From: Negaprion brevirostris
Taxonomy: Eukaryota
Reading direction: 5' to 3'
Length of the DNA stretch: 64,000 bases
Assembly (NCBI GenBank): GCA_030324005.1
Contig: JARDVH010000110.1
Span: 52,470,340-52,534,339 of the forward strand
In this document: one piece after another, positions 11,789 to 51,330 of the stretch
Position numbering within the stretch: the stretch's first letter is position 1
How the letters are laid out: each line of letters starts with the position of its first letter
Notes under the pieces: model-generated
The model's input: the letters and a program-made list of their open reading frames with translations, nothing else
Told to the model about the DNA's origin: nothing
Database searches by the model: none
Program-made: the position numbers and the translations under genes

Positions 11789-32025
<20,237 letters not shown>

Positions 32026-38465: not shown

Positions 38466-39519
38466 AGACTTTAACTTCCTATAGATCAATGATGAGGGCA
38501 TATTTGGAATTAGGAATCTAAATTTAGATATAACTTTATCCTAAAAAGGGTACAGAGCACCAAGGATAATTCCAAGACAAAGGGCAGGGCTTTTTGGCCA
38601 CCTGGGGTACATTTTGTGGCAGCAGAGGTGGCCCATTAATCACTGGCAGCAGAATCTTCCAGTCCCACTGTTGAGAATAGCATTTCTCATTGTCCAGACC
38701 CTTCACTGCCAGGGAACCCGCAGCTAGGCGGTCTGCATTGGCAAGACTGGAAAACCAAAAAATCCCACCATCTGGGTGGGGTTTTCCAGCCTTGCTTGCC
38801 TAAAGCCAGAAAATGCCGCTTGAAGTCAACAGACCTTTGCATAGCCCATGTCCTGCCTGCTACAATTGCTGTGGTGGGCGGGATGGGAACATTCCACCCT
38901 CTATGATCTTAATTTGAAAGAAAAATCTGAAACACTGATCTTAGCTTCACCGGATAATATGAGATTATAGAGAGCCATGACACAGGCATGACTGAGGTTA
39001 AGATGATATAATCTGTTAGCAATGGTAAAATAATTAATATACAAGGATTAATGTATTTTTCTCAGGGAGATGACATAGTGGAAATCTCACCATGACTAGT
39101 AATCCAGAGATCCAGGCTTTTGATCTGGGGACACAGATTTAAATCTCATTACAGCAGCTGGTGGAATTTAAATTCACTTGATAAATCTGGAATTAAAAAA
39201 AGACTACTCTCGGTAATAGTGACCATAAAACCATTGTGATTCACTGATGTCCTTTAGGGAAGTAAATCTGCCATCCTTCTTTGGTCTGGCCAATATGTGA
39301 CTCCAGACCCACTGCAATGTGTTCTTTTTTTATTCATTCATGGGACATGGGCGTCGTTGGCTGGTCAGCATTTATTGCCATCCCTAGTTGCTCTTGAAAA
39401 GGTGGTGTGGTGAGCTTCCTTCTTGAATCGCTGCAGTCCATGTTCTGTGGGTTGAACCATCAAGAAGGAAAAACATACCTGATCTCATCCTCACCAAACT
39501 GCTGCAGATGCATCATGAT

Positions 39520-43894: not shown

Positions 43895-44905
43895 TGTGTG
43901 GCCAAATTCCCCCCAACTCAATTTTCAAGTTTGCTGACGATACCACCGCAGTGGGTCTGGTCTCAAACAATGACGGGACAGAGTACAGGAGTGAGATAGA
44001 GAATCTGGTGAGCTGGTGCAACAATAATAATCTCTCCCTCAATGTCAACAAAACAAATTAGATTGTCATCAACTTCAGGAAGCGTAAAGGAGAACACACA
44101 CCTGTCTACATCAGTGGGGACAAAGTGGAAAGGGACGAGAGTTTCAAGTTTTTAGGTGTCCAGAAAGGCCACCAAAGCCTCTACTTTCTCAGAAGGCTGA
44201 GGAAATTTGGTATGTCAGCTGCACTCTCACTGTTTACAGATGCACCACAGAAAGTATTCTTTCTGGTTGTATCACAGCTTGGTATGGCTCCGGCTCTGCC
44301 CAAGACTGCAAGAAACTACAAAAGGTTGTGTATGTAGGTCAGTCCATCACACAAATCAGCCTCCCATCCATTGACTCTGTCCACACTTCCCACTGCCTCA
44401 GAAAAGCAGCCGGCATAATTAGGGACCCCACACACCCCGGACATTCTCTCTTCCACCCTCTTCCATCAGGAAAANNNNNNNNNNCCGTGTATTGGGATAC
44501 AGTGAAAAGTATTGTTTCTTGCGCGCTATACAGACAAAGCATACTGTTCATAGAGAAGGGAAGGGAGAGAGTGCAGAATGTAGTGTTACAGTCATAGCTA
44601 GGGTGTAGAGAAAGATCAACTTAGACTTTTGAATGGACCTACCTCGCATTAAGTTGATCTTTCTCTACACCTGAGCTGTGACTGTAACACTACACTCTGC
44701 ACTCTCTCCTTTCCTTCTCTATGAACGAATTACTTGAAGAGCAGTGCTCCGAAAGCTCGTGCTACCAGATAAACTTGTTGGACTTTAACCTGGTATTTTG
44801 AGACTGCTTACTGTTCTCCATGAATGGTGTGCTTTGTCTGTCTAGCATGCAAGAAACAATACTTTTCACTGTATGCTAAATACATATGACAATAATAAAT
44901 CATAT
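43895..44905 (+). mobile_element. Rex1/Babar LINE 3' fragment
   Basis: KFADDTTAVGLVSNNDGTEYRSEIENLVSWCNNNNLSLNVNKT, LYFLRRLRKFG and DPTHPGHSLFHPLPSG; tail gacaataataaatcatatcagatc. Confidence 0.88.
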
Positions 44906-49092: not shown

Positions 49093-50723
49093 TTCAGTCA
49101 CTAAGATATTGGCCTATGTCAATCTGAAGGACAATTTGATTACAAATCTGAAACAGGGAAAACAAAACCTAAGAATGAACCCATTGGGTTCTGTAAGGGA
49201 TGGACACACGCAAGGGCTCTCACCCACTGATGACTGCGCTGACAAAGTGCCAATTGTCAAAAATCAGAAATATTGCCAAATTTTTGAAAATAGTCTAATA
49301 TGGCCGAACAGGAAAGAAAGCCGGGACCTGCACAAAGCTCTTTATTTGTCTTGTTCTTTTCTTTATAGATTTGGAAAAAGATGGTGCAGCGCGAGGGAGC
49401 GAACCAACATCATAACTTTCAATGTCTGTTAGTGATTGCAGAGAAAGTGGCCCATTCTGTCAAGAGCCCAATCATCTTTCATCGCAATCCCAGAAAGATA
49501 AACTTGAGATTGTATGGATAACCATATGAGCAATTGACACAGGATGATTGGCCAGAAAATGAAGATTGGGAGGTTAAACATGATGTAACTGAATAGAGGA
49601 TTAAGAGATATCAGACTTCACTGTGAGGATTCAGACAATTATCTCAACGGCTTTTCCATGTTAAAGGAGGTAAAATATTCAGACTTGAAAGCTGGGCCTA
49701 TAAATACATTTTGGATTCATCTTACTGCTTACCTGATAGTTATTGGGAACTACAATTGAGCCCATGTTAATGATAATTCTCTTACATAAAGGGATGAAGT
49801 TTTTTAATGTTCACTCATCATTTCTCAACCCCCATGACCACCCCTCTCATTTTGATGCCCGAAGCAAATCAAGACACTATGAAGTCCTCATTTTACGACA
49901 ATATTCTGTGCTAGTAAGAAATCTTAACAGCGAGATAACTGGATCATATGACGATCACATAACCATTTGTTACTTAGCAAATTGTTCAGGCTAGTTTTCT
50001 CACTTTTTCATCATTATGCTAGAGGAATATACTGACATTTATCCAAAGTTCGAACATCTAGCTAATAAAATGTATTCATAATGTTGGCATCTTGTGTTTA
50101 GATGGTGTTGAAAAATCATGGAAATTTGTTGCTAAGCTAATTTGCAGATTTGCTTTTAACAGACATCATTACTTGGATTTTGCGGTTTCATGTATGCGTC
50201 GGATATTCAGGAATTCGAGAATTAGCCCATACTTTGAGATTTGTTGATAAACAAAAACTGTGATATGAAAGCAGAAAACTAGAACACAATTTCACACAGT
50301 GATAGGACACAAAGTCCTGATGTTAACTCTCAAGAGTGAAATCTAGTGGCGGGATGTGTGTATGGTGTCAGCATGATGTCCCCACGCTGTCTCAAGCAAG
50401 AGGCTTGCGCAACCTTAACTCCTGGGCCTCATTTTAGTATGATGACTGGACTATCCACCCTATCACATCAACAAACAAGTGGTGCAACCATTTTTTCTGC
50501 ACAATATCTAGCAGGGATTCTGAAGCCTATGTGAAGCAGAAATGAGCCTCTTAAAGAAATGTTGCTTTAGCTACTTTCAAATTTCAATGTCATACTGCTG
50601 CAGGGAAGAGAATCTCTGAAATGAGTTGCATAGCCAGCCCCAGATATCTCCCTGGAGAAGGATATCAGAGTAGTCTTTCTCATCACCTTCAAGTGCAGCC
50701 CCAGGCTGACTATCTGTCATGTC

Positions 50724-50954
50724 TGAACAGGGTATACACAGTAAAAAGTCTGACAACACCAGGTTTAAGTCCGACCGATTTATTTGATAGTAACCTCACT
50801 AGCTTTCGAGGTTTCCCTCTTCTTCAGGTGAAACCTCGAAAGCTAGTGAGTTTACTATCAAATAAATTGGTTGGATTTAAACCTGGTGTTGTCAGACTTT
50901 TTACTGTGTATACCCCAGTCCAACACCGGCATATCCACACCATGAACAGGGTAT
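50724..50954. mobile_element. Penelope-derived fold-back element with 12-bp target-site duplication
   Basis: Inverted arms 50730-50815 / 50830-50915. TGAACAGGGTAT occurs at 50724-50735 and 50943-50954. Confidence 0.85.
50796..50831 (-). ncRNA. Minimal type-I hammerhead ribozyme
   Basis: Minus strand: UCAC-CUGAAGA-A-GAGG-GAAA-CCUC-GAAA-GC-UA-GUGA. The core is complete, with stem I UCAC/GUGA, stem II GAGG/CCUC and a palindromic AGCU in place of stem III. Confidence 0.75.
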
Positions 50955-51330
50955 TACAGAGCATTGTCAGTAGTGTCAACATGTGGTGCTAACTTCTTTA
51001 TTGGAAGAGCTTCAGTGGTCATACAAGGGTGAATATTGCTCTTCATCCCATATTCTAGAGTCAAAGAACAAAGAACAGCACAGCACAGGAAACAGGCCCT
51101 TTGGCCCTACAAGCTCAGTGAGTGCCTTATTCCAGTCTTTCGTCGATCATCAACGTTTTTGTCTACCTCTAGTGGAACTCCACAATAAAGGGGTGCAAAT
51201 TTTGTGAATTATATGTATGCCAGATTAAGGNNNNNNNNNNNNNNNNNNNNNNNNNNNNNNNNNNNNNNNNNNNNNNNNNNNNNNNNNNNNNNNNNNNNNN
51301 NNNNNNNNNNNNNNNNNNNNNNNNNNNNNN

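Follow-up and report, generated by a model that had tools for sequence, protein, structure and literature searches.

A hammerhead-bearing hairpin in the Negaprion brevirostris genome as a head-to-head pair of short Penelope-like element copies

A 64,000-nucleotide stretch of Negaprion brevirostris DNA (hereafter, the window) contains a 231-base insert, 50724..50954, that forms a hairpin and carries a hammerhead motif on one strand. This raises the question of whether the hairpin is a unit that spreads by itself, with its ribozyme and antisense arm working together, or the product of a single insertion by a larger element. The arrangement is that of a head-to-head pair of 5'-truncated pLTR copies of a Penelope-like element (PLE). 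We are confident in reading the insert as short pLTR copies of an endonuclease-type PLE, likely made in one landing in which both nicked strands primed reverse transcription on the same RNA, with a hammerhead that is predicted to be locked and is likely inert. The parts of the insert and its target site are given below. Positions within the pLTR are numbered along the minus strand from C3 of CUGA (+1, at 50827), which puts the cut at +28/+29.

50718..50723, minus strand: left target half-site with TG at 50720-50721, a partial match to the family flank motif
50724..50735, plus strand: left copy of the 12-bp target-site duplication (TSD), with its final 6 nt matching the element as well (a possible site of primer pairing)
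50730..50832, minus strand: tail-less pLTR arm, -4 to +98, with the whole hammerhead inside (arm alignment and direct reading)
50796..50831, minus strand: minimal type-I hammerhead (direct reading, fold, and stem II covariation between subfamilies)
50830..50832, no strand: central junction with 3-nt microhomology, GAA/TTC, where the arms overlap by 3 nt
50830..50945, plus strand: tailed pLTR arm, +13 to +128, without CUGANGA (arm alignment)
50916..50942, plus strand: one-sided PLE tail of about 27-30 nt, at whose end the ORF start codon stands in long copies
50943..50954, plus strand: right copy of the 12-bp TSD, whose first 3 nt also match the element's end
50955..50960, plus strand: right target half-site with CAG at 50957-50959 (family flank motif)

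The architecture described in an earlier note on this DNA holds up well. Its near-perfect inverted arms of about 86 bp pair at 82 of 86 positions (50730-50815 against 50830-50915), and the 12-bp TSD said to overlap the element's own end is present as perfect copies of TGAACAGGGTAT at 50724-50735 and 50943-50954, with an overlap of 6 nt at the left arm and 3 nt at the right. The 3' ends of the arms differ (+98 and +128), both arms are shorter than 130 nt, and the insert has no ORF. By the tested features, 50724..50954 is an inverted tail-bearing insertion of a probable EN+ PLE with a minimal hammerhead.

All of the hammerhead core nucleotides are indeed found on the minus strand, 50831-50796, reading UCAC CUGAAGA A GAGG GAAA CCUC GAAA GC UA GUGA, and direct reading places the predicted cut between 50800 and 50799, as the earlier note had it. 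The motif resolves into a 4-bp stem I, CUGAAGA, an extra A, a 4-bp stem II with G10.1-C11.1, the GAAA loop, the AGCU palindrome and UA. The features given for minimal hammerheads (min-HHR) in the passages of PMC4209133 used here are all present (core nucleotides, an extra base at 9/10.1, G10.1-C11.1 and a palindromic 15.2-16.2), and this comparison, together with the core read, supports the identification of a Penelope-type minimal hammerhead with a palindromic AGCU loop. The plus arm was thought to keep only the GAAA-GC-UA half; that half is there, but loop II and the 3' strand of stem II are kept as well. The tailed plus-strand arm lacks CUGANGA and therefore has no complete ribozyme. An Rfam scan returned no hammerhead family at E<=1, these minimal motifs being below detection, and its matches at the insert were only miRNA-type hairpins, all under their gathering scores.

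Taken in isolation, the motif forms stems I and II (z -2.3, with 2 of 200 shuffles equally good) at predicted equilibrium pair probabilities of 0.65-1.0, and two motifs folded together are predicted to pair through their AGCU palindromes. The entire element is predicted to fold as a single hairpin (-152 kcal/mol, z -19.8). In the full RNA the predicted equilibrium pair probability of stems I and II is 0.0, and forcing the ribozyme fold carries a penalty of 34.7 kcal/mol; even with the antisense arm removed, the downstream RNA would favour an alternative fold by 3.3 kcal/mol. Sequestration of the ribozyme by the antisense arm, as had been suggested, is in line with this predicted masking of about 35 kcal/mol. 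A role for that arm as a regulated switch finds no support, since the antisense arm would be transcribed first and masking is predicted to be complete. The hammerhead of this insert is thus likely a fossil copy, locked in its hairpin and inert, and we infer that the ribozyme matters to the source elements rather than to this copy. Among 41 copies, 23 have AU and 17 have GC at the second pair of stem II, a covariation score that 0 of 500 shuffles reach, and 15 leave the fourth pair unpaired; the core and part of stem I were required in selecting this sample and hence carry no weight as evidence. Because stem II covaries between subfamilies, the ribozyme was likely under selection in the source elements.

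The PLE origin proposed for the hairpin is borne out by its pLTR family, which is linked to an RT-bearing ORF with an EN-like C-terminus. Exact genome matches number 5,310 for a 28-mer, 1,867 for a downstream 33-mer and 63 for a 29-nt hammerhead variant, as against 0 for control patterns, and the hairpin is a stub of a PLE with thousands of copies in the genome. The ORF of long copies begins where the tail ends. One near-complete but broken relative (L175) has an RT ORF (PF00078, E 7e-8) with a DKG motif; its linker reads C-x4-C-x2-C, and the pLTR comes after an EN-like C-terminus. In L177 the first Cys of the linker is changed. The L175 C-terminus resembles a PLE EN of the GIY-YIG type in motifs identified by eye. 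Pfam and NCBIfam gave no GIY-YIG match on the degraded EN copies, a PDB sequence search with the RT gave no match, and none of the fetched copies had an intact parent ORF. L175 belongs to a sister subfamily, 83% identical to the window arm, and L126, of the same subfamily as the window copy, is 73% identical over 360 nt to the L175 C-terminus and pLTR. According to the passages used from PMC8557442, a CX2-5CxxC linker between RT and EN marks the Neptune and Nematis clades; L175 has such a linker and by this mark would belong to one of these clades. Several copies (L082, L153, L161, L165, L151, L154 and L158) jump from about 110-125 nt inside the ORF directly to the pLTR, often at one spot, after a GACAAGAT motif. 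These jumps may be recurrent template switches or mini-elements made of an ORF start and a pLTR.

We then compared the layout of the insert with that of other copies, sampled as the first matches listed on contig C1 and the loci returned with searches; the 33-mer and 28-mer samples were both drawn from one contig. The 3' ends of arms are bimodal: among 214 readable arms, 121 reach no further than +100 (114 of them stop at +84..+95), 86 end at +120 or beyond, and 7 in between. Both end sites also occur in single-arm copies with a TSD. There were 58 head-to-head pairs, 4 of them with an end in a gap, and 50 of the other 54 joined one short, tail-less arm to one long, tailed arm. A TSD of 9-17 bp, mostly 12-13, flanks 46 of the 58 pairs, compared to 2 of 300 mismatched-flank controls. 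The window copy (-4..+98 / +13..+128) is typical for the family. In the main sample, 46 of 100 arms are cut by an N gap on the hairpin side, so the assembly likely under-represents and breaks such hairpins. At one junction, L005:1408-1488, we observed three tandem units of about 35 nt that include the hammerhead 5' half, suggesting repeated RT slippage at one point.

Relatives at 29011, 39520 and 44729 in the window had been listed as hairpins of the same kind and size, about 230 bp. They turn out to be 73-83% identical, to belong to other subfamilies and to be built differently. The first, 29011-29373, is an inverted insertion of a sister-subfamily PLE with an antisense arm of at least 300 nt that is cut by a gap, followed by a short tailed arm, and its hammerhead has AAAA where GAAA is expected. 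The second, at 39513, runs into a gap, and that at 44729 is a single arm. This last one (44729-44814) is tail-less, has an 11-bp near-TSD and sits inside an unrelated MITE-like element, 44492-44879, with TIRs at 44492-44557 and 44814-44879 and an inner 65-bp hairpin at 44559-44714. Elsewhere in the window, long inverted repeats (57300-57519/59010-59212) enclose a direct duplication of about 600 bp (57997-58181/58595-58789).

How could one insertion yield two unequal, opposed arms? The insert combines two different arm 3' ends, a 12-bp TSD and a 3-nt junction microhomology, and most sampled copies have the same build. Positions -4..+12 occur on the short arm only and +99..+128 on the long arm only; because each arm holds sequence absent from the other, the insert calls for two cDNAs, each with its own priming event. 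Variants that mark subfamilies match between the arms of an insertion in 70 of 76 cases at +83 and 30 of 32 at +28, so both arms likely came from one RNA, although later gene conversion between arms could also account for the concordance. Both arms cross the cut site, and the template was therefore uncleaved or religated. Exact microhomology between TSD and element averages 1.5 and 1.8 nt at the two ends, against 0.4 with swapped TSDs (22 and 17 of 45 ends were scorable), and a match at both ends fits 3' overhangs acting as primers.

These observations are suggestive of a mechanism wherein the element's protein, probably a dimer, would make one nick in each strand, 12 nt apart and immediately 5' of an NCCAG-like motif, so that the ends are 3' overhangs. 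The overhang of the top strand would prime at the inner RT start and run to about the 5' edge of the hammerhead, while the bottom-strand end would prime at the outer start, in the tail. Both would copy an uncleaved RNA, and the two cDNAs would then anneal on GAA/TTC and be filled in. Much of this has a precedent in the anole Poseidon element (PAc), for which the passages used from PMC11167929 describe cutting and extension of both strands in vitro, RT starts at two internal RNA sites bounding the tail, use of uncleaved RNA with ribozyme cleavage unnecessary, and a predicted dimer. PAc also prefers ATT and primes without homology in the same passages, and this target and priming, unlike the motif and short pairing of the family studied here, run counter to the model, as does a second locus, L002, that carries an identical junction. 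No empty site appeared among the joints shown in three DNA runs, in which the right flank was without cover.

A simpler route to a second arm would be for a single cDNA to snap back and prime itself at the junction, as proposed for palindromes of Adineta PLEs; junction palindromes are interpreted as self-priming in the part of PMC3846280 used. The variants common to both arms would follow, and the 3' end of the short-arm cDNA is able to pair with its own TTC. Even so, the private -4..+12 and +99..+128 need a second RNA-templated start, leaving snap-back to contribute to the join at most, and as the source of the second arm we consider it improbable. L002 bears more directly on the earlier proposal of a retrozyme-like, non-autonomous hairpin that is transcribed and re-inserted as a unit, its antisense arm switching the ribozyme. 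It shares the window junction and has its own 13-bp TSD, L266 and L270 have another junction in common, and PLE-pLTR retrozymes are described in vertebrates, including one cartilaginous fish, in the portion of bioRxiv 10.64898/2026.07.22.740005 used. Against this, 38 different junctions occur among 39 gap-free pairs, which speaks against a propagating family of ribozyme hairpins; the single repeat is the window with L002, and L002 was itself found by searching for that junction. The genome-wide search for a shared central junction that the earlier note had called for found it, with two patterns, in 2 places only, the window and L002, as compared to 501 matches for the 5' half of the hammerhead variant concerned. 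The arms of L002 stop at +86/+129 and do not have the +93 A, which both window arms carry and which, among 151 tailed arms, is seen in 1, the window's; the two loci have one variant in common, a CpG-type change at +51 that 11% of copies show. Of 30 loci returned by a DNA search for the closest hairpins, 22 remain after setting aside the window, L002, 1 duplicate and 5 with no pair that could be scored, and 0 of these 22 had the identical junction sequence. The same GAA(T) join recurs in L269 and L284 on different stem-II variants, so the recurrent junctions are best read as convergent microhomology joins. What we did not find in these samples is the same junction and ends with different TSDs in many copies, the pattern of a self-propagating family. 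Retrozymes, moreover, are head-to-tail tandems, unlike the head-to-head window copy with its one complete ribozyme, and we consider a hairpin that moves as a unit highly improbable.

The insert might instead have been retained by the host, as an exapted ribozyme or structured RNA downstream of the GABA-A receptor alpha-1-like gene, whose last exon ends near 32025 on the plus strand, about 18.7 kb upstream. Every core nucleotide is intact, and in DNA contigs from two organisms the unique left flank continues past the TSD for 24-25 bases into the element, one contig being identical to the window and the other about 3% diverged in the flank. As 24-25 bases fall short of the 31 letters set for bridging, these contigs only suggest a shared, older insertion. 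The window arms have 5 and 3 departures from the family majority, as expected of any old copy, the element lies about 18.7 kb beyond the stop codon of the receptor gene, the gene strand has no CUGANGA, and the motif on the opposite strand is predicted to be masked. Set against these points, exaptation seems to us scarcely credible. Within the gene, Rfam reports a match to the GABA3 editing element (68 bits, 21973-22026), and the last exon, 31831-32025, best matches GABA-A receptor alpha-1. At the position in the match that we take to be the known I/M site, the codon is already ATG in the DNA. Given the alpha-1 last exon and this ATG, the match likely reflects homology between paralogues and not an editing site.

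Returning to the reading of two cDNAs primed from both nicked strands, we next considered where the copies end at their 5' side. When arms censored by gaps (46 of 100 in the main sample) are kept in the at-risk count, 5' ends concentrate immediately upstream of the hammerhead, at 0.034 stops per base for -9..0 and 0.022 for -22..-10, compared to 0.004-0.011 in flanking bins (ratio 4.3, p 4e-7, with bins chosen after the data were seen). The simplest reading is run-off at the RNA 5' end; a stall of the RT at stem I is the alternative. A candidate peak at the ribozyme cut site was rejected (bin +26..+32, rate ratio 1.46, p 0.18, anchored further downstream), and the lack of a clear truncation peak there agrees with uncleaved RNA as the template. 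An Inr-like CCATT, the A of which is 6 nt before C3, has a TATATG 30 nt upstream of it, and by the core-promoter consensus the two make up a TATA/Inr-like site. For comparison, a TATA and Inr pair is described in the Adineta pLTR (PMC3846280) and a TATA-less internal promoter in the D. virilis Penelope (PMC2377424), in the passages used from each.

The insertion sites share a symmetric NCCAG-like motif outside both nicks, with the same bias on both strands. Reading half-sites outward from each TSD edge, we found that position 3 is C in 52 of 89 and that position 4 is A in 56 of 89. CCA or CAG occurs within 6 nt in 58 of 90 half-sites (29 of 45 on either side, in a set that includes the window and L002), compared to 14.6% of random positions at the same loci. 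The motif was present in 17 of 22 half-sites of a second set (11 TSD loci, with the window, L002 and one repeat excluded) and in 30 of 44 half-sites of a third, made up of the 22 of 132 single-anchor loci that have an exact TSD, as against 5-13 of 44 in windows further out. The spacing from TG to CA peaks at 16-17 in the family. At the window site the right side shows CAG and the left side matches in part, and the empty-site TG-to-CA spacing is 16, the modal family value. L002 (1410-1630) and L019 (1480-1500) have an identical left junction within copies of a LINE-like repeat, and the TSD and flanks of L128 resemble theirs. The junction common to L002 and L019 suggests a reused site, possibly a hot spot inside another retroelement. 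No published report of a symmetric flank motif appeared in the literature searched, and the portion of PMC12910113 used does not touch on PLE target sites; sources beyond that search, among them Repbase, Dfam, journals behind subscription and supplements such as Fig. S1-S2 of PMC11167929, may bear on the point. The locus itself is ordinary; what the family adds, in its target motif and its end statistics, is modest and testable.

The target motif, the stagger and the strict pairing of arms fit a dimer acting on both strands. We put forward, as a proposal that could equally prove right or wrong, that these stubs record the full insertion reaction of a Neptune-type PLE. A dimer would recognise a palindromic site (CTGG-like ... 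CCAG-like, about 16-17 nt from TG to CA) and make two symmetric nicks with a 3' overhang of 12-13 nt, and two cDNAs would start from the two internal sites of one RNA. Action of the protein on the promoter-proximal pLTR, with run-off at the RNA 5' end just upstream of the hammerhead, would account for how short the stubs are. If true, this would explain the flood of solo minimal hammerheads in vertebrate genomes and would supply a defined in vitro substrate. In the literature found, PLE integration has been reconstituted for one element alone, and the symmetric GC-containing motif, the fixed 12-13 nt stagger and the pairing of tail-less with tailed arms specify precisely, for a Neptune-type enzyme, a substrate to offer and the products to expect.

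The layout of the insert, an inverted 5'-truncated pLTR with a one-sided tail, is already published in the passages used from PMC8557442 and PMC3846280; the PLE tail is described in those of PMC8557442 and PMC11167929. The window copy has the inverted truncated pLTR, the one-sided tail, the short TSD and the pLTR hammerhead of that published layout. The closest counterpart is Pen2a_Av of Adineta vaga (PMC3846280; PMC8557442, in the same passages), which likewise has head-to-head 5'-truncated pLTRs, a tail on one side (30-40 bp there) that ends near the ORF start, and a TATA and Inr-like pair in the pLTR. Its type of TSD is about 9-10 bp and that of the family here is centred on 12-13 bp; unlike Pen2a_Av, the window arms are shorter than 130 nt and hold no ORF, and the symmetric flank motif seen here is unreported in those passages. 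The hammerhead itself is like the min-HHR of PMC4209133, to judge from the part of that paper used, in its type-I topology with no stable helix III, its extra nucleotide at 9/10.1, its G10.1-C11.1 pair and its palindromic 15.2-16.2. The min-HHR described there are mostly solo copies, with opposite-strand pairs 100-700 bp apart and no shark example in that part; the window motif differs in its 4-bp stem II and in being buried by an adjacent antisense arm. Non-LTR retrozymes (the portion used of bioRxiv 10.64898/2026.07.22.740005) are similarly non-coding, hammerhead-bearing and derived from PLE pLTRs, but they are defined as head-to-tail tandems with at least 2 complete ribozymes, and the insert, an inverted one-off with one, falls outside that definition. 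For the reaction, the nearest system is PAc (Frangieh et al. 2024, PMC11167929, in the passages used), which shares two internal RT starts bounding the tail, cutting of both strands and a predicted dimer. PAc inserts at ATT in AT-rich DNA without homology, whereas the family described here combines a linker of the Neptune/Nematis type with NCCAG-like flanks on both strands and a mean primer pairing of 1-2 nt.
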